A DNA stretch of 64,000 bases from assembly GCF_056746865.1 (NCBI RefSeq), contig NZ_CM163382.1. The stretch is one strand, 5' to 3'. Below the pieces are notes generated by a model. That model saw nothing but the letters and a program-made list of their open reading frames with translations. It had not been told where the DNA came from and did not search any database. The translations under genes were made by a program, and so were the position numbers. How positions within the stretch are numbered: position 1 is the stretch's first letter; every line of letters begins with the position of its first letter. This document shows, piece after piece, positions 35,835 to 56,623 of this stretch.

Positions 35835-35911
35835 GCGCCCTTAGCTCAGTTGGATAGAGCAACGACCTTCTAAGTCGTGGGCCGCAGGTTCGAATCCTGC
35901 AGGGCGCGCCA
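35835..35911 (+). tRNA. argU: tRNA-Arg (anticodon TCT, reads AGA/AGG)
   Basis: 77-nt cloverleaf GCGCCCTTAGCTCAGTTGGATAGAGC...TCTAA...GGTTCGAATCCTGCAGGGCGCGCCA. Confidence 0.95.
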
Positions 35912-41095: not shown

Positions 41096-42028
41096 CTATT
41101 CGATTTTTTTAACCATGTAGTTACGTCGTGATGTTCCTAATCTTTCATTGTGAATCTCAGAAACGCTTACTACGAGCGATATTCGTTCACCAACTTTATA
41201 TTTACTTTGAATTTCTCCTAACATATCAATCGGATAAGAAGCCTTTATTTTTCCAAGCTCGCTTGCAATCTCCAATTTCCCGTACATGGATAAAATAGCA
41301 AGTTCGCCTGATATATGCTCATCCGGTAGCTGAATGACCTTCGTTAAAGCTAAGCGAGCATTCAGTTTTTTTATATCTTCTGAAGAAATTGACACTTGTC
41401 TGGTACCATCACTTAAAGGTCCAATCCAAGTAAGATCAAAGTTAAGACTATATTTTTCGCACTCATTTATGATGTTTTTTAGGTTAGCTGTTGATTGCGA
41501 ACCAATTTCGGCAATTTTAGCCGTGAATGTTTCTTCATCAATGGATGAGAGTAGTGCAAAAATCTCCTTAACAGCATGACTGGATACTGTTTCGATGAGC
41601 TCGCAAGAACCAGTAGAAAAAGTAACACCTAACTTCGTCGAACCTGGACGCAAGTCTGCCAATCTCATGTCTAATGATTTTTTAACATCAATCGGCACAC
41701 GACTAGAATCTTTCCCAGATCCAAGTCGGTAAACTGCTTTCTGTACAAGGGATGCGAGATTACCTGAAATTACAGATAGAATATCTAACGGAATAGACCC
41801 GAAATCGACCAAAACACCTTTTAATCTCAACTCCATGAAATCACGTAAAGGATGTTGGTTATCGATTGCACGTTGTCTCTCTCGGAGATCGCTCAGATGG
41901 GAGTCAAGTGATCTAAATATAATGTCATCAGCAAATGATCTCCCCTTATTTTGAGCAAGCAGATCCACATCGCGTTGAATGAACGCAATTCGCTCCTTGA
42001 GGGAGTTGAATGTTTTTTCTTCGCTCAT
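41096..42028 (-). CDS. Hypothetical protein, distal gene of the rexAB-position operon
   Basis: 310 aa; AT-rich; start overlaps stop of upstream 157-aa gene (ATGA); no recognisable family. Confidence 0.6.
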   Translation of the reverse strand: MSEEKTFNSLKERIAFIQRDVDLLAQNKGRSFADDIIFRSLDSHLSDLRERQRAIDNQHPLRDFMELRLKGVLVDFGSIPLDILSVISGNLASLVQKAVYRLGSGKDSSRVPIDVKKSLDMRLADLRPGSTKLGVTFSTGSCELIETVSSHAVKEIFALLSSIDEETFTAKIAEIGSQSTANLKNIINECEKYSLNFDLTWIGPLSDGTRQVSISSEDIKKLNARLALTKVIQLPDEHISGELAILSMYGKLEIASELGKIKASYPIDMLGEIQSKYKVGERISLVVSVSEIHNERLGTSRRNYMVKKIE

Positions 42029-42498
42029 AACATTACCCTCACGAGGCCTTTAGGATTCTCCTTCCGATCAAAACCAAACCACCCTCTCCAGTAACTTCGC
42101 CTTTCACTATAATCGATTTCTGGATGATTTTCAGGCAGCAAAAGAACGTCAATGCTGTAGTTTTCTTTAATAAAATCTCTATTTAACAATGAGCTGACCA
42201 ATGGCATCAGCGTGTTTGGCAAAGAGTTTAGGGCCAAATAATCGACGACCACGAGTATATCTATGTCATCAGGTTCAGGTTTCTCTGTAGTGAATGAACC
42301 ATCGATCCACACTTCAGAGAAACATAGACACTGCTGATTAACAAGTTTAAATTGCTCAATAAGCTGTATAAAATTACAGTATAGCATACTTCTTCTAACG
42401 GATTTTGGGAAGGTGTCGACACAAAGAGACTTGATGCCATCACTATCCATATCATGAAATCCTGCTGTAAGAAGAGGTGGGAAGCTAGGCTTTTCCAT
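42025..42498 (-). CDS. Putative minimal nucleotidyltransferase-fold protein, proximal gene of the rexAB-position operon
   Basis: 157 aa; GS-x9-DxD motif (WIDGSFTTEKPEPDDIDILVVVD) typical of the Pol-beta NTase superfamily; AT-rich. Confidence 0.55.
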   Translation of the reverse strand: MEKPSFPPLLTAGFHDMDSDGIKSLCVDTFPKSVRRSMLYCNFIQLIEQFKLVNQQCLCFSEVWIDGSFTTEKPEPDDIDILVVVDYLALNSLPNTLMPLVSSLLNRDFIKENYSIDVLLLPENHPEIDYSERRSYWRGWFGFDRKENPKGLVRVML

Positions 42499-46474: not shown

Positions 46475-47977
46475 TTAAATTGCATCTGCAAACTCTGGGG
46501 TTTTTCGCTCAGGTATAATTGATGAGTTGCTGTTGTCACTTTTTTTATTTTCATGATTACGAATAGCCAATGACTCATTAAAGTCTTTTGCGACTGCTGT
46601 CTCAATAAATTCAATTTCTGAATCAGAGTGTTTTTTAACAGCTTCTTTGATCTCATCCAGAGTAACATAGAAAAACTCTTTTCTACGATTTACAAGATTG
46701 ACTCTCTTTTTATCGAAGACATCATGTAGTTTTTTTTCTAATGATGGAGCGTCCTCCGAATAAATCATGGCATGTACATCAAAAATAAAAGGAACAGATG
46801 CATCACCGAGCTCATTTACACGGTCTTGCGGATCAAGACGTCGTGTCATGCCTATTTTATAAACATTCTCCCCAAAAGAACCTATGTTCGAAATAATATA
46901 AACATGACCTTGTTTGGTTTGTTGTGCCATGGATAATGCTCTTTGATGCTTTGATTCAGCCTGCGACAAACTCTGTTCTAGTTCGGCAATGCGATTTTCG
47001 AGGCGCTGCTTCATGTCACCAGTAACTTTTTCCATTTCCTTTCTTGCAGCTTCAATTGCTTTTTTATAACGGCGCTCTTCTGCCTCTGCGTCTTGCATGG
47101 CCTTTTCTATTTCTCGTTGTGCACGCTCCTCCTCTCTCATTTGTGCCCTTATTTCTGCCTGTTCTTCTTTTTCTTTCTGTTTTTGCTCACGATATTCATG
47201 GGTAAGCCACAATTCCTCAAGTTTTTTATTGAGGTATTTAGTGTTTATATATATGTGATTTTGCTCGTTTAGTTTATTTATGGCCTCAAATGCCTTTGTG
47301 ATGCGTTCTTCCATTTTAGTGATGTTTTTCCACGTGCAATTGCTAATTGCAGCATCACATTCATTATTAAATGCTCTAGTAGTTAGCCTGATATTTCTGT
47401 CTGTCATTTTTTTACCCTCTGCTCGAGAGCCTTCAACAGTCCATTGGGTTGTACAATATACTGCGCCAGAGTGGGTTTTATCCCGCAGCATTAATTTCTG
47501 TTCATCCCTGATGGATTTTATTTTGTTTTTAAATTGCTCTGAATCTTCAAAATTAAAATGAGGTTCGTAAAATCCTAGTTCGGCTAGCTCAACATCTTCT
47601 GAATAAATAGAAATTTGCCTTACTAGTTTATCATATATTTCTTTCTTCTCTTTATAAGTTCTTCTTAGCTCTTGGATTTGTTTATTGATACCATCCATTT
47701 TTTCAATGGTGTTTGTTAGTTCATTATTGGCATTTTCTTTTACTTTTAGGGATTCTTCTTTTATTATGGAGCATTCTTGCTCTGTTTTCTCAATAAGCTT
47801 CTTACATTCTTCTTCTACATTAAAATAATCTGCAAAGCGAGATTTGTATTCTTCATTTTTTTGATTGCTATCACTTAATTCTAATTGTATTTTTTTGATG
47901 CGTTTGATTGCAGCTATATAAAGAACAAGAACAACCAATAAAAATATGATTGCAAGTAATAGAGGAGTTTGAGTCAT
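46475..47977 (-). CDS. Membrane-anchored coiled-coil protein with C-terminal T5orf172/GIY-YIG-like domain (DUF4041-like middle region)
   Basis: 500 aa; N-terminal TM helix (LLLAIIFLLVVLVLYIAAI); long E/K/R-rich coiled coils; C-terminal GHVYIISNIGSFGENVYKIGMTRRLDPQDRVNELGDASVPFIFDVHAMIY; antisense to flanking phage genes; strongly AT-rich. Confidence 0.7.
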   Translation of the reverse strand: MTQTPLLLAIIFLLVVLVLYIAAIKRIKKIQLELSDSNQKNEEYKSRFADYFNVEEECKKLIEKTEQECSIIKEESLKVKENANNELTNTIEKMDGINKQIQELRRTYKEKKEIYDKLVRQISIYSEDVELAELGFYEPHFNFEDSEQFKNKIKSIRDEQKLMLRDKTHSGAVYCTTQWTVEGSRAEGKKMTDRNIRLTTRAFNNECDAAISNCTWKNITKMEERITKAFEAINKLNEQNHIYINTKYLNKKLEELWLTHEYREQKQKEKEEQAEIRAQMREEERAQREIEKAMQDAEAEERRYKKAIEAARKEMEKVTGDMKQRLENRIAELEQSLSQAESKHQRALSMAQQTKQGHVYIISNIGSFGENVYKIGMTRRLDPQDRVNELGDASVPFIFDVHAMIYSEDAPSLEKKLHDVFDKKRVNLVNRRKEFFYVTLDEIKEAVKKHSDSEIEFIETAVAKDFNESLAIRNHENKKSDNSNSSIIPERKTPEFADAI

Positions 47978-48789: not shown

Positions 48790-49398
48790 ATGACTACTCA
48801 ATTAGCATTCCACAAAACGACGTTTACCCCGATTTGCCACAATAACAGAATTTGGCTTACTGCCACTGAAGTTGGTTTAGCACTGGAATATGCGGACGAT
48901 AAAGCAGTTCAGCGCATTTACTCTCGGCACTCAGATGAATTCACAGATATGATGACAAGGGTGGTCAAAGTGACCACCCCTCGTGGAATGCAGGAGTCTC
49001 GAGTATTTAGCCTTCGCGGAGCCCATTTGATCGCCATGTTTGCTCGTACTCCTGTGGCCAAAGAATTCCGCCGCTGGGTTCTGGATATTCTCGATCGAGA
49101 AGTTCAACAATCCCCAATCACAAAACAATTCACTGATAACGAACTTTGCACACTCGCCTGGTTATGGCGAGCAAGTGATACGATGTTAACCGCCTGCCAG
49201 AACGTTACGCCCCTTCTTCAGGTCGCAGAGCATCGCGAAGCAGGTAGATTCACTTCAATCGAACAAGAATATCCTCGGATACTCAACAGGGCGCGAGAAA
49301 TCCTTGCCAGAGAAACGGCGCATGTAAAATTCCAACCGTGGCAGGATGATAAGTGGAGTCGTGTGTTACCATATTTCCGTCAGAATCTGTTGCAATAA
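48790..49398 (+). CDS. Bro-N/antirepressor-like protein
   Basis: 202 aa; N-terminal Bro-N-like region (LAFHKTTFTPICHNNRIWLTATEVGLALEY...SRVFSLRGAHLIAMFARTPVAKEFRRWVLDIL). Confidence 0.6.
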   Translation: MTTQLAFHKTTFTPICHNNRIWLTATEVGLALEYADDKAVQRIYSRHSDEFTDMMTRVVKVTTPRGMQESRVFSLRGAHLIAMFARTPVAKEFRRWVLDILDREVQQSPITKQFTDNELCTLAWLWRASDTMLTACQNVTPLLQVAEHREAGRFTSIEQEYPRILNRAREILARETAHVKFQPWQDDKWSRVLPYFRQNLLQ

Positions 49399-50963: not shown

Positions 50964-51246
50964 TTTGAGAAAAGCAGCGCGTGGTCGGGAATGCCAGGTA
51001 AGAATCCCTGGCGTATGTAATGGCAATTCTGAGACGTCTGTACTGGCACATATCCGGCTGGCTGGATTGTGCGGTACCGGTATCAAACCGCCAGACCTGA
51101 TTGCCACCATTGCATGTTCTGCCTGCCACGACGAAATCGACCGCCGCACGCATTTTGTTGACGCTGGATATGCAAAAGAATGCGCGCTGGAAGGTATGGC
51201 GAGAACGCAGGTTATCTGGCTGAAAGAGAGGGTAATTAAGGCGTGA
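50956..51246 (+). CDS. ybcO: YbcO-like (DUF1364) Cys-rich protein
   Basis: 96 aa from [23 protein letters not shown]...; multiple Cys. Confidence 0.7.
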
Positions 51247-51605
51247 ATACTTACCACATCACACTACCCTGGCCTCCGAGCAATAATCGCTATTACCGCC
51301 ATAATCGCGGGCGCACGCACGTCAGCGCAGAGGGGCAGGCATACCGCGATAACGTCGCCCGAATCATTAAAAACGCAATGCTGGATATCGGCCTGGCTAT
51401 GCCTGTGAAAATCCGCATTGAGTGCCACATGCCGGATCGCCGTCGCCGTGACCTGGATAATCTGCAAAAAGCCGCTTTTGACGCACTCACTAAAGCAGGT
51501 TTCTGGCTGGATGATGCTCAGGTCGTTGATTACCGCGTTGTGAAGATGCCTGTTACCAAAGGTGGGAGGCTGGAACTGACCATCACCGAAATGGGGAATG
51601 AATGA
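51243..51605 (+). CDS. rusA: Holliday-junction resolvase RusA
   Basis: 120 aa [18 protein letters not shown]... Confidence 0.9.
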
Positions 51606-51742
51606 TGTTTGAGTTTAATATGGCAGAACTTCTTCGCCACCGCTGGGGGCGTCTGCGCTTATATCGTTTCCCCGGCTCTGTTTTGACCGATTACCGAATA
51701 CTGAAGAATTACGCCAAAACACTGACAGGAGCAGGAGTATGA
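51602..51742 (+). CDS. ylcG: YlcG-like small protein
   Basis: 46-aa [29 protein letters not shown]... overlapping rusA stop. Confidence 0.55.
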
Positions 51743-51827
51743 AGTCAGAGATAACAATCAACTAATACTGTTTTGTTGATTTTTGCTTGTAATTGGCGTT
51801 CTGGTCTGAGTTTTGTGGAGTAAGTTG

Positions 51828-52211
51828 ATGCGTGATATTCAGATGGTTCTTGAGCGTTGGGGAGCGTGGGCGGCTAATAATCATGAAGATGTGACCTGGT
51901 CGTCCATTGCCGCCGGTTTTAAGGGATTAATTCCTTCAAAAGTAAAATCTCGCCCGCAATGTTGTGACGATGACGCGATGATCATTTGCGGGTGCATGGC
52001 CCGTCTGAAAAAGAACAACAGCGATTTGCACGATTTATTAGTAGATTATTATGTAGTCGGTATGACATTCATGTCACTGGCAGGTAAGCATTGCTGCTCT
52101 GATGGTTATATCGGGAAAAGGTTACAAAAGGCTGAGGGCATAATTGAAGGGATGTTAATGGCATTAGATATCCGGTTAGAGATGGATATCGTTGTTAATA
52201 ACTCTAATTAA
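51828..52211 (+). CDS. quuD: Late-gene antiterminator Q (QuuD type)
   Basis: Cys-rich ([12 protein letters not shown] ... CC); last gene before the late-promoter region; start could be 51813. Confidence 0.7.
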
Positions 52212-52400
52212 TATGCCAATTGTTTACTAAAAATTATTAAAAATGGGGCGTTGAGACGCCCCCAAAAATAAAGGGTAATATATAACAGAAGGTTTATATA
52301 GTTAGAAGCAAGGTTGTGCTTCTAAAGGAAGTGGCTTGAGGGAGCCACTTATATGTTGGGGAGGCAACGCCTCCCGCAACATATCTTTTTCGTAATCAGA
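52212..52400. promoter_or_regulatory. Late promoter/qut/terminator region with clustered hairpins
   Basis: Hairpins ggggcgttgagacgcccc, gaagcaaggttgtgcttc, gtggcttgagggagccac, ggaggcaacgcctcc. Confidence 0.55.
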
Positions 52401-53483
52401 TTAGAACTGGTAAACCAGACCTACAGCAACGATGTCATCAGTATCAATACCAGCTGTTTTGGTAAACTTACTATCGTCAATTAAGTTGATTTTGTAATCA
52501 ACAAAAGTGGACATGTTTTTATTAAAGTAGTAAGTAGCACCGACATCGACATACTTGACTAAGTCTCGGTCACCATGAACACCAAGGTCTTTACCTTTTG
52601 ACTGAAGGTAAGCAACAGATGGGCGCAGACCGAAGTCAAACTGATATTGTGCTACTGCTTCAAAGTTTTGTGCTTTGTTTGCAATATGGTTATTACCAAA
52701 AACGGTCATATTCTGAGTTTCAGAATATGTGGTAGCCAGATAGATATTGTTCGCATCATATTTCAGGCCTGCAGCCCATACTTCCGCATTTTTGCCGGAG
52801 GCATTGAATTTGCTCTTACCATAGGCGACCTGACCGTCAGTGCGATCTGATTTAGCATAGGTTGCACCCACGCCGAATCCTTCATACTCATAAGTAGTGG
52901 AGAAACCGAAACCATCACCATTGGCTTCAGTTACGTCAGTGCGGTCATTTTTACCCTGATACTGAGCAGCAAAGTTCAGGCCATCGACCAGACCAAAGAA
53001 GTCGTTGTTACGATAAGTTGCAACACCAGTAGTGCGACCAGTCATGAACACATCTGTTTGGGTCCAGGTATCACCACCGAATTCTGGCAGGACGTCAGTC
53101 CACGCACCGATGTCGTATGCTACACCGTAGTTACGGCCGTAATCGATTGAGCCGTAATCACCAAATTTCAGGCCTGCAAATGCAAGACGGGTTTTGTCTT
53201 TGGAAGAACCTTGAGATTCAGCGCGGTTGCCTTTGAATTCATATTCCCACTGACCGAAACCAGTCAGTTGATCGTTGATTTGGGTTTCACCTTTGAAGCC
53301 AAGACGGGCATAAGTAGTATCACCATCATCTGCATCATTAGAGGAGAAGTAGTGCTTAGCATTAACTTTCCCGTACAGATCCAGCTTGTTACTGTCTTTA
53401 TTATAAATTTCAGCTGCCTGAGCAGACATCGCCATCAGTACTGATGCAGCTACAGCAGAAATTGCCACTGTTAATTTTTTCAT
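52401..53483 (-). CDS. nmpC: General porin (OmpC/OmpF/NmpC family), uninterrupted
   Basis: 360 aa; signal peptide [23 protein letters not shown]; C-terminal ...GLVYQF. Confidence 0.88.
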
Positions 53484-54056
53484 CGTGAGCCCTTTTTTTT
53501 GAACTATTATTAAAAAATGATGTCACTGCGCGATAAATATTCATCTAATCAATGTGATTATTTCAAGATGTAAGTTTTGGTTTCTCGTTTAATTTGTGAA
53601 GTAGATCTCTATTTTTATCTGAACTTTTTTCTATCGAATCCTATTCATGGCTCTTGGCTGAATAAAAATAAATCTATTAGCCAATTTATATTAATGGCTG
53701 TTATTTATAAGTGCTCTATAATTTGAAGGTTCAATTTAAATTGGCTAAAAATAACGCTGGAAATTATTTGTTGGTTATTTGTTGAGATTTGCTTATGTAT
53801 TTGTAGTGGTGTTTTCAATACTCGGTAGCATTCTCGCAAATATCATTTAGTGGTTTACGTACGTAAAAAATTGGTTATGCTGTTAAGAGTGGTTACTTCG
53901 TCACACAGCTTAAACCCGCCGTCGAGCGGGTTTTTCCATTTTTTGAGTCTCGATATTAGCTGATAACCCAATACCTGAGTTATTCACTGACTCCGAGTCT
54001 GTTACGTTTCGTAGTATTCCCTCAATTTACACCCGCTTTGTCTGCGAGGTGGGGTT

Positions 54057-54272
54057 ATGAAATCCATGGATAAGTTAACAACGGGTGTCGCCTATGGCAC
54101 CTCAGCAGGTAGTGCCGGGTACTGGTTTTTACAGCTGCTCGATAAAGTCACGCCCTCACAGTGGGCAGCAATAGGTGTGCTGGGTAGCCTGGTATTTGGC
54201 CTGCTGACGTACCTGACAAACCTTTATTTCAAGATTAAAGAAGATAAGCGCAAGGCTGCGAGAGGTGAATAA
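54057..54272 (+). CDS. essD: Holin (phage 21 S-like)
   Basis: 71 aa; hydrophobic; first gene of lysis cassette. Confidence 0.85.
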
Positions 54273-54769
54273 TGCCTCCATCATTACGAAAAGCTGTTGC
54301 TGCTGCTATTGGTGGCGGGGCTATTGCTATAGCATCTGTGTTAATCACTGGCCCAAGTGGTAACGATGGTCTGGAAGGTGTGAGACATAATCCTTACAAA
54401 GACATAGTTGGTGTATGGACTGTATGTTACGGGCATACAGGAAAAGACATCATTCCCGGTAAAACGTATACCGAAGCAGAGTGCAAAGCCCTCCTGAATA
54501 AAGACCTTGCCACTGTCGCCAGACAAATTAACCGGTACATCAAAGTCGATATACCGGAAACAACGCGCGGCGCTCTTTACTCGTTCGTCTACAACGTGGG
54601 TGCTGGCAATTTCAGAACATCGACGCTTCTTCGCAAAATAAACCAGGGTGATATTAAAGGCGCATGTGATCAGCTACGGCGCTGGACATACGCTGGCGGT
54701 AATCAATGGAAAGGACTGATGACTCGCCGTGAGATTGAGCGTGAAGTCTGTTTGTGGGGGAAACAATGA
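54272..54769 (+). CDS. rrrD: Endolysin (T4 lysozyme-like)
   Basis: 165 aa; N-terminal SAR-like hydrophobic segment; GH24 lysozyme-like sequence. Confidence 0.88.
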
Positions 54770-55233
54770 GCAGAGTAACCGCGATTATCTCCGCTCTGGT
54801 TATCTGCATCATCGTCTGCCTGTCATGGGCTGTTAATCATTACCGTGATAATGCAATCGCCTACAAAGAACAGCGCGATAACAAGGCCAGTGAACTGGAG
54901 AAGGCGAACGCCACCATTACTGACATGCAGCAGCGCCAGCGTGATGCTGATGCACTCGATGATAAATACACGAAGGAGTTAGCTGATGCGAAAGCTGAAA
55001 ATGATGCTCTTCGGCGCAAGCTTGATAATGGTGGTCGGGTGCTCGTCAAAGGAAAATGCCCTGTGCCATCCTCAGCCGAAACCTCCAGCGCCTCCGGCAT
55101 GGGCAATGATGCCACCGTCGAACTCTCTCCAGTTGCTGGACGAAACGTTCTCGGTATCCGGGACGGAATTATCCGCGACCAAACAGCATTGAGAACGCTT
55201 CAGGAATACATCAGGACGCAATGCCTTCGATGA
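54754..55233 (+). CDS. rzpD: Spanin Rz (i-spanin)
   Basis: 159 aa; N-terminal TM, coiled coil; overlaps endolysin stop. Confidence 0.85.
54986..55192 (+). CDS. rzoD: Spanin Rz1 (o-spanin lipoprotein), embedded in +1 frame of Rz
   Basis: [21 protein letters not shown] lipobox; Pro-rich. Confidence 0.8.
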
Positions 55234-55724
55234 TAGCGATAATTTTACTCATCATCCTTCACATCTGGCTCTGTAGACAGGGTGGTGCTCACTTCTGGAG
55301 TGAATCCAGATTAAACATCTCATTGCTGATGCTTGATATTGAGCATTTTGCGCGCGGTAAGGGGCTGCGTTGAGATAAGAGCCAGTCATTACAAATACCA
55401 GGATTTAGCCTCGCATTCGCGGGGCTTTTTATTGCCATTACAAAAGCCACTTCCTACAGAGTGGCTTTGATAATGGCTTATACCCTACACGGGATAACTT
55501 AACTGATATCCCTTTTAAAGGATAAAGGTATTCAAGCCTGACACATCATGCGCTGTATCGTCGCCGTATTCCCGTATTAACAGAGACCGTAGCCCGACGG
55601 GGAACTCCTTCTGCGCGAGTGTGCGGGAATAATCAATAACGATGCACACCGGGGTTACCGGGTACACATATTTCATCATGCCAGCGAGTCCGGTTCTGGC
55701 ACGGAAGAAACCGGACGTTATGAT

Positions 55725-56135
55725 TTAGTGCGGAAATATTTGTGTAGTGTTCTGAATGTTCTCAGTAAAGAGTAATGAATTATCAAAGGTATAGTAATAC
55801 CTTTTGTTTTCGTGGATATTTGTAATCCATCTGAAAACCCCTGCTGTAGCAAGATTTTTCCTGTATTCGTAAAATGATAACTCTCCTGATTTGAATCCTT
55901 TTAAGGTGGCTTCTATAAGGCATTTATTTTTTGAAAATCTTACATTTACAACCTTACTCTGTCCTTTTATTAAAACCGTATTATCGTTTTCAAGAACAAG
56001 ATGAATATTCTCTGTGGCTAAATAGTAAATGTAATGTGAGACATTGTGACGTTTTAGTTCAGAATAAAACCAGTGATAGTTTAAATTATTTCGCACTTTA
56101 TCGAATATTTGTTTAAAAATGGCAACCTGAGCCAT
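55725..56135 (-). CDS. ybcV: YbcV-like (DUF1398) protein
   Basis: 136 aa from [14 protein letters not shown]...; AT-rich; antisense to lysis and head genes. Confidence 0.6.
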
Positions 56136-56192
56136 TGTAGTACCTTCCATGTGATATGAAGGTACCTAGTCTGCACGATTATCTAAATTGCT

Positions 56193-56426
56193 TCAATCTG
56201 GTCTGACCTGCTTTCTGAGCAATTCAGTAATGTCACTCTTTTCTTTGTTTGCTTCAGGCGAAACTCTTTTTTCTGAGCACAGTCTTCGGCGGCAGGCTTC
56301 AATGACCCAGGCTGAGAAATTCCCGGACCCTTTTTGATCAAGAGCAATGTTAATTTGTTCAATCATTTGGTTAGGAAAGCGGATGTTGCGGGTTGTTGTT
56401 CTGCGGGTTCTGTTCTTCGTTGACAT
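56193..56426 (-). CDS. Small ribbon-helix-helix-like DNA-binding protein (YlcI-like)
   Basis: 77 aa; basic N-terminus; C-terminal ...VIEACRRRL. Confidence 0.45.
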   Translation of the reverse strand: MSTKNRTRRTTTRNIRFPNQMIEQINIALDQKGSGNFSAWVIEACRRRLCSEKRVSPEANKEKSDITELLRKQVRPD

Positions 56427-56623
56427 GAGGTTGTCCCGTATTCAGTGTCGCTGATTTGTATTGTCTGAAGTTGTTTTTACGTTAAGTTGATGCAGATCAA
56501 TTAATATGATACCTGCGTCATAATTGATTATTTGACGTGGTTTGATGGCGTAGATGCACGTTGTGACATGCAGATGATAATTATTATCATTTTGCGGGTC
56601 CTTTCCGGCGATCCGACAGGTTA

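Follow-up and report, generated by a model that had tools for sequence, protein, structure and literature searches.

Lysogeny by phage PA-2 brings with it expression of the phage-borne porin Lc and an IpeX-mediated reduction of the host porins OmpC and OmpF. Reviews describe IpeX as a 167-nt RNA from DLP12 and PA-2 that is transcribed together with the porin, from the porin promoter of the phage, and later processed; they disagree on whether it needs Hfq. The reduction of OmpC and OmpF by IpeX is post-transcriptional, and published genetics assigned this inhibition to exactly the sequence shared by DLP12 and PA-2, which in PA-2 is the 3' end of lc. IpeX RNA has since been measured in clinical isolates, and a survey of REP sequences lists ipeX among its REP-containing entries. 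The porin itself has likewise been followed in several strains: its channel conductance is cited in the literature, NmpC protein was present in 89% of the outer-membrane proteomes of uropathogenic E. coli (UPEC), nmpC was among the genes most strongly induced at 37 °C relative to 23 °C in strain CFT073 at both the RNA and the protein level, and NmpC has been linked to heat resistance in strain AW1.7. In K-12, the prophage DLP12 (qsr') is defective, and its nmpC gene is split after codon 346 by an IS5 element (annotated IS5B).

The window analyzed here, a 64,000-nt stretch of DNA, closely matches the chromosome of E. coli strain 118UI, with 9 mismatches over 50 kb. Up to a tRNA-Arg(tct) gene at 35835–35911, it carries chromosomal genes (the allantoin cluster, purEK, and the sfm fimbriae); past this tRNA gene lies a lambdoid prophage with an integrase, exo/bet/gam, a repressor, cro, replication genes, and a nin region, followed by Q, the porin, the lysis genes, terminase, and portal. 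The insertion site is this tRNA-Arg gene (argU), the same site that DLP12 occupies in K-12. The prophage carries an intact NmpC/Lc-type porin gene as antisense cargo in the interval that separates Q from the lysis genes, the position between a lambdoid Q and S-R-Rz that characterizes the NmpC/Lc module. The locus is very probably a classical lysogenic-conversion module of the PA-2/DLP12-type lambdoid phages, carried intact by a prophage at argU. The coordinates of its features are collected in Table 1.

Table 1. Features of the porin locus and its flanks, in window coordinates
Feature	Position	Strand	Basis and remarks
Q antiterminator, QuuD type, 127 aa	51828–52211	+	Pfam Phage_antitermQ, 180.8 bits
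Structured porin 3' UTR, putative IpeX equivalent, ~167 nt, 4–5 hairpins	52234–52400	−	Probable ends
Intrinsic terminator of the porin/IpeX transcript	52245–52262	−	Terminator scan; GGGGCGU-CUCA-ACGCCCC, then AUUUUUAAU
Candidate terminator for rightward transcription leaving Q	52351–52390	+	Putative; largest hairpin, then CUUUUU
Porin gene, NmpC/Lc lineage	52401–53483	−	Signal peptide, residues 1–23, at 53415–53483; mature protein 337 aa
AT-rich (29% GC) porin control region	53484–53851	−	Composition; ~98% identical to K-12, 94% to PA-2
Candidate sigma-E-like promoter toward the lysis genes	53500–53527	+	Pattern search, TGAACTA-N16-TCACT; fits a +1 at ~53532
CRP-binding site, ATTTGTGAAGTAGATCTCTAT	53592–53612		J02580 misc_binding mapped by alignment; identical here; depositor's annotation
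Candidate late promoter pR' with short leader and terminator tR'	53852–53940	+	Conservation, terminator scan
Candidate −35 element of pR', TTTACG	53854–53859	+	Followed by a 16-nt spacer
Candidate −10 element of pR', TATGCT	53876–53881	+	Followed by a 30-nt leader
Candidate tR' hairpin, then T-run	53912–53933	+	Also in terminator scan
P21-type lysis cassette: S holin/antiholin, SAR-type lysozyme, Rz	54057–55233	+	Pfam Phage_holin_2_1, Phage_lysozyme, Phage_lysis
S21 holin	54057–54272	+	Pfam
Rz1 ORF embedded in the lysis cassette	54986–55192		ORF list

The porin is encoded by a single unbroken ORF of 360 codons with an ATG start, as the original prediction of a general porin with a signal peptide had it. 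The protein matches Pfam Porin_1 over all 337 positions of the profile (504.7 bits against a cut-off of 23.7) and phrog_410 over its full length (741 bits); it passes the NCBIfam threshold for the OmpC subfamily (521.2 vs 484), and its scores fall below the PhoE and OmpF equivalog cut-offs. Residues 1–23 have the same sequence as the signal peptide marked in the PA-2 lc record. Residues 24–360, the mature protein, align over their full length with solved OmpC, OmpK36, PhoE, and OmpF chains (E ~1e-137), beginning at residue 1 of the solved mature OmpC chains, and both the PEFGG motif of the constriction loop and the C-terminal YQF are kept in the translation and in the alignment to 2xe2. By homology to these solved porins, the product would form a trimeric 16-strand barrel with channel conductance. 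OmpC, OmpF, PhoE, and Salmonella OmpD share its fold family, length, PEFGG motif, and C-terminal Phe; in contrast to these chromosomal porins, it is prophage-borne and does not lie at the ompC locus, and its L4/L5-type insertions are shorter in the alignment than those of OmpC. An identical protein, WP_000737271.1, is named 'porin OmpC' by RefSeq in strain 118UI. PADLOC matched the porin to no defence system.

On either side of the porin, the phage genes are those of the known module. Q is 99.5% identical to K-12 quuD, and the same CDS is annotated by RefSeq in strain 118UI; its relationship to phage 21 Q is distant, with an alignment to the Q21 chains in the PDB over 80 aa (E = 7.6e-8). The reading of the lysis cassette matches the K-12 and phage 434 annotations.

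Compared with K-12 DLP12, the window prophage has the same argU site and the same order Q-porin-S-R-Rz, and the two are collinear over the K-12 quuD-nmpC-essD segment once IS5 is removed; the gap 3' of the porin is 100% identical, the 5' gap 98–99.6%, and S 99%. Unlike DLP12, the window prophage keeps its recombination, immunity, replication, terminase, and portal genes, and it lacks bor, which is present in K-12. PA-2 Lc (J02580) shows the same module in the same orientation with an identical signal peptide and an identical (100%) 3' segment, and its upstream region is 94% identical, both annotated CRP sites included; its S leader carries a 16-bp insertion relative to the window. That the K-12 copy is disrupted by IS5 had been stated correctly, as the annotated split shows; the suggestion that an uninterrupted gene is therefore noteworthy did not hold up. 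The locus has matches in 3,333 of the 5,426 complete E. coli genomes (2,464 of them with at least 80% of the locus), and 43 phage records match as well, among them J02580, the PA-2 lc entry of 1986. About half of the complete genomes carry the porin gene with its IpeX region. The K-12 IS5 junction, by contrast, is found in just 280 of the 5,426 genomes, mostly laboratory strains, so the uninterrupted gene is the usual state.

The present allele departs from both reference genes in its interior. The window porin has 360 aa, whereas K-12 NmpC and PA-2 Lc are both 365-aa alleles, and its DNA is 85.5% identical to the reconstructed K-12 nmpC and 86.5% identical to PA-2 lc. This divergence is unevenly distributed: codons 1–90 are identical to K-12 nmpC at the DNA level save for one base, codons 91–355, which represent another allele, carry dense synonymous changes, and the last porin codons, together with the 3' gap, are again identical to K-12. 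Amino-acid changes and indels relative to K-12 nmpC fall in a few blocks, at surface loops where OmpC also has insertions. Judged from this pattern, the allele is a recombinant mosaic in which flanks ~98–100% identical to K-12 enclose an old, divergent surface-loop core; conserved ends around a divergent loop core are what is expected of an exposed porin. Among viral contigs, 21 distinct porin proteins fall into three main groups, namely the present 360-aa allele, a 360-aa allele 94% identical to it, and the 365-aa NmpC/Lc type, and 87 of the 89 complete porin ORFs in these contigs, spanning the 21 protein variants, are full length.

Downstream of the porin, the 189-bp gap to Q (52212–52400) folds into 4–5 hairpins with a free energy of −63.4 kcal/mol (z = −9.3; none of 200 shuffles was as good), which bears out the predicted hairpin cluster at the porin 3' end. 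On the minus strand, the distance from the porin stop codon to the intrinsic terminator (52262–52245 plus the U-run; −13.9 kcal/mol, z = −3.8) is ~167 nt, in agreement with the published length of IpeX. Variation in the cluster offers modest support for a conserved 3' structure: among 34 variants from viral contigs, all 15 common polymorphisms are either unpaired or pair-preserving (11 lie in unpaired or loop positions, and 4 keep their pairs through A-U/G-U or G-C/G-U exchange), and only rare variants break pairs. A scan of 51000–56500 with Rfam 15 at E<=1 gave no match within 52212–52400, a result that says little on IpeX, and ipeX is absent from the RefSeq feature table of K-12. The sole match of the scan was a sub-threshold hit to STnc560 at 55305–55496 (19.9 bits vs 55). 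Since Rfam gave no matching family, membership was assigned through sequence identity and the literature, by which the hairpin cluster is the IpeX-bearing 3' UTR and terminator segment of the porin gene, with predicted IpeX ends.

The cluster may serve a further purpose. Its largest plus-strand hairpin (−21.3 kcal/mol, z = −5.9) is followed by CUUUUU, so transcription that runs rightward out of Q may end here too, and the cluster would then act as a two-way insulator. Whether insulation is all that it does, as a terminator stack or a set of REP-like palindromes with no regulatory RNA role in this strain, is another matter, and we consider this unlikely. Terminator-like hairpins on both strands would suit such a function, as would the listing of ipeX in the REP survey. 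Against it, the published inhibition of OmpC and OmpF belongs to a sequence that is 100% identical here, and IpeX RNA is detectable in clinical isolates; moreover, insulation and an RNA role are not mutually exclusive. To our knowledge, there is no clear base pairing of IpeX with ompC, and we know of no such target, a point that would favor insulation alone.

The 573-bp gap upstream of the porin (53484–54056) is 34% GC overall and 29% GC in its proximal 368 bp. Scanning for consensus sigma-70 sites revealed no promoter for the porin in 53484–53851 and none in either intergenic region; with regard to the transcription signals of its own that mark a moron, the porin has a terminator and no promoter site by consensus scan. 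The pointers to a porin promoter are the annotated CRP site and published expression. The second 'CRP site' annotated in PA-2 maps to 53888–53908, inside the leader of the candidate pR'-tR' module. At the proximal end of the gap, a published reporter fragment of the DLP12 lysis operon (−121 to +650) is defined by primers (PMC7918800) that map to 53411–54181, which would place the published lysis-operon +1 at ~53532 on the plus strand. The proximal end of the gap thus appears to overlap the published rightward sigma-E start of the lysis operon, and the distal ~200 bp likely hold the late promoter, the terminator, and the S leader. With a sigma-E-type start and a late-promoter module both within it, the gap would be a shared divergent control region. 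The description of this region as ~570 bp of AT-rich DNA was therefore accurate, whereas its attribution to the porin alone was too broad, since the distal part likely serves the phage late genes.

This composition could also be read to mean that the gene, though uninterrupted, is silent: with its AT-rich upstream DNA silenced, e.g., by H-NS, the porin would ordinarily contribute nothing and persist only by riding with the prophage. Low GC content, the lack of a consensus promoter, and the low expression of NmpC at 23 °C are all compatible with silence, and an intact nmpC in E. coli B is reportedly quiescent. We nevertheless regard a silent gene as quite improbable, given the presence of NmpC in most UPEC outer-membrane proteomes, the strong induction of both mRNA and protein at 37 °C in CFT073, the near-universal retention of a full-length ORF across the 21 variants in viral contigs, and the concentration of amino-acid changes in surface loops, as for an exposed and selected protein.

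The late promoter of phage lambda is placed immediately downstream of Q. The late switches of lambda, 21, and 82 (Q, pR', a sigma-dependent pause, and tR') resemble the window in that a Q gene is combined with a short promoter-leader-terminator unit that precedes the lysis genes and is linked to the Q type; in the window, however, the candidate unit stands 1.67 kb from Q, with antisense cargo between the two. The evidence for this unit comes largely from comparison between phages. PhiR40_1, whose Q is 82% identical and is followed by another antisense gene, shares with the window only 53876–53935 and the start of S in the interval between Q and S. A 21-mer taken from the 53876–53935 block had exact matches at 120 loci in viral contigs, and a QuuD-type Q (85–100% identical) was found upstream wherever enough upstream DNA was present. 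Two layouts were observed at these loci: Q, the antisense porin, the block, and S 181–198 nt further on; or Q, an unrelated antisense insert of 0.6 kb, the block, a 1.66-kb stretch of forward genes (a DNA methylase among them), and S. Across contexts, conservation begins exactly at the −35 TTTACG and ends with the T-run, and the conserved spacer reads CGTAAAAAAT. Phages of the ev087 type, whose Q is 88% identical with a different C-terminus, lack the 53876–53935 block; hence, the module appears specific to the closer Q types. In phages with a related Q and another C-terminus, similarity stops 24 nt before the Q stop codon, so the window has nothing downstream of Q in common with them.

A bounded promoter-leader-terminator unit that is tied to the Q type and stands before the forward late genes is the basis for placing the late promoter at 53852–53940. 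The late promoter and its terminator are thus most likely located in this module, not in the hairpin cluster, and the module is a candidate target of Q, on which its activity would presumably depend. Literature searches found no mapped DLP12 late promoter. The Q21 binding element (GCAAATGAGCAACA) was not enriched, with 6 matches at <=3 mismatches against 9.2 expected by chance, and the window unit lacks it, unlike that of phage 21; transfer of this element was rejected because the Q of the window is only distantly related to Q21. It had been proposed that the hairpin cluster overlaps the late-promoter region, and a late promoter directly after Q within the cluster, from which Q-modified polymerase would cross the porin gene antisense to reach S, would reproduce the lambda arrangement and fit a cluster that abuts the Q stop codon; this is very improbable, since 52212–52400 yielded no promoter-like site on either strand and is instead the 3' end of the porin transcript, identical to IpeX-bearing DNA, the phages with another Q C-terminus share nothing downstream of Q, and the conserved block travels with the Q type after the antisense cargo. 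Each of the three alternatives (a silent gene, a late promoter at Q, and a cluster that only insulates) is less well supported than the replacement of host porins.

From the published work on expression and on IpeX, porin replacement emerges as the most likely mechanism. Leftward transcription of the porin, opposed to the phage late operon, would begin in the gene's own AT-rich control region, where its promoter is provisionally placed. The porin precursor would shed the 23-aa signal peptide and assemble in the outer membrane as a porin of the general diffusion type, and the same transcript would carry the ~167-nt multi-hairpin IpeX segment at its 3' end and stop at its own terminator. IpeX, in turn, would lower host OmpC and OmpF after transcription, as published work indicates. 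With the porin expressed and OmpC and OmpF reduced, the lysogen would swap host porins for the phage porin, which would change permeability and remove OmpC as a receptor for related phages. That the gene may be expressed from the lysogen and alter outer-membrane permeability or the availability of phage receptors had been anticipated from the sequence; expression in lysogens, with its consequences for the porin make-up and for receptors, is established in the literature on PA-2 Lc and IpeX, UPEC proteomes, 37 °C induction, and strain AW1.7. In lysogens, porin expression may further be under catabolite and temperature control, as suggested by the literature and by the CRP annotation of J02580. 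The module would occupy a cargo slot between Q and the target of Q; since the candidate late promoter stands just upstream of S, late transcription need not cross the porin gene.

The same slot is filled differently in related phages. A lipocalin follows the related Q in ev087, and an ORF of phrog_3152 follows it in PhiR40_1 and in ~20 viral contigs, replacements of the kind seen for morons. Together with the mosaic structure of the gene, these examples lead to a tentative suggestion, which we hold to be possible and on the whole rather doubtful. The gap between a QuuD-type Q and the displaced late promoter would be a dedicated antisense cargo slot, and the porin an exchangeable allele cassette: its two ends, one comprising the 5' leader plus codons 1–90 and the other the IpeX 3' end, would be invariant anchors on either side of an old, highly diverged loop-coding core that recombination among prophages reshuffles. 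Selection on the core would come from phages or immunity, and the ends would be kept for regulation at the RNA level.

The feature is already known and very common, with the module described since the 1980s and IpeX since 2006, and the practical consequences concern how such loci are named and annotated. The RefSeq name 'ompC' for the prophage porin is a naming trap that may mislead studies of resistance through OmpC loss or of phage receptors. The hairpin cluster should be annotated as an IpeX-bearing 3' UTR, not as a phage late promoter, and the 573-bp upstream region as a shared divergent control region that likely includes the late promoter and terminator. More broadly, the module represents textbook lysogenic conversion, in which replacement of the host porins by a prophage porin affects permeability, phage susceptibility, and surface antigens.

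Directly after related Q genes, other phages carry different antisense cargo: a lipocalin in phage ev087 and a phrog_3152 protein in PhiR40_1. A phrog_3152 ORF after Q is also found in approximately 20 viral contigs (e.g., L017 and L022). In the second layout, where a 0.6-kb antisense insert follows Q, a DNA methylase lies downstream of the block containing the candidate late promoter and terminator, the same position that stx occupies in Stx phages. The sequenced laboratory phage 434 isolate 434B (comparison locus L005; OL657227) possesses a Q-nmpC::IS5-S region of the K-12 type, which looks like a segment acquired from DLP12, a cryptic prophage of K-12. Its depositors label this region as 434 non-homology.

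Besides the porin, the prophage has a second antisense cargo gene, encoding a DUF4041 protein that matches the PADLOC model PD-Lambda-1 over its full length and is followed by a gene for a P22AR C-terminal-domain protein. Where rexAB would lie, with the repressor on one side and kil/gam on the other, there are two genes that both match the candidate defence system PDC-M63.

Features of the slot after Q in other phages (L006 and L007, comparison loci) and of the prophage in the window
Feature	Location	Strand	Details
Lipocalin (Blc-like, Pfam Lipocalin_2)	L006 747-1271, phage ev087	antisense	slot after Q
phrog_3152 protein	L007 627-1073, PhiR40_1	antisense	slot after Q; unknown function
Match to PDC-M63 subunit B	within 41096-42498	minus	310 aa; E = 4e-42
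Match to PDC-M63 subunit A	within 41096-42498	minus	157 aa; DUF6932; E = 7e-43
DUF4041 protein, nin region	46475-47977	minus	500 aa; PD-Lambda-1, E = 2e-198
P22AR C-terminal-domain protein	48790-49398		after DUF4041 gene
ORF embedded in Rz, other frame	54986-55192	plus	68 aa; lipoprotein-like signal (…VVGC)

At the lysis end, the ORF embedded in Rz is the Rz1 o-spanin expected at this place; it is unannotated in the record of the near-identical strain 118UI. K-12 DLP12 and phages 434 and ev017 all have bor in the interval from Rz to ybcV, but the window lacks it (gap at 55233-55725). The sole content of this gap is a weak, sub-threshold match to Rfam STnc560 (55305-55496), which reaches 19.9 bits where the gathering cut-off is 55.

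In many genomes, the prophage porin is named by PGAP as 'ompC: porin OmpC' (e.g., NZ_CP032515.1 663327-664409) because it passes the OmpC-subfamily model, and two ompC genes can therefore seem present in one genome.
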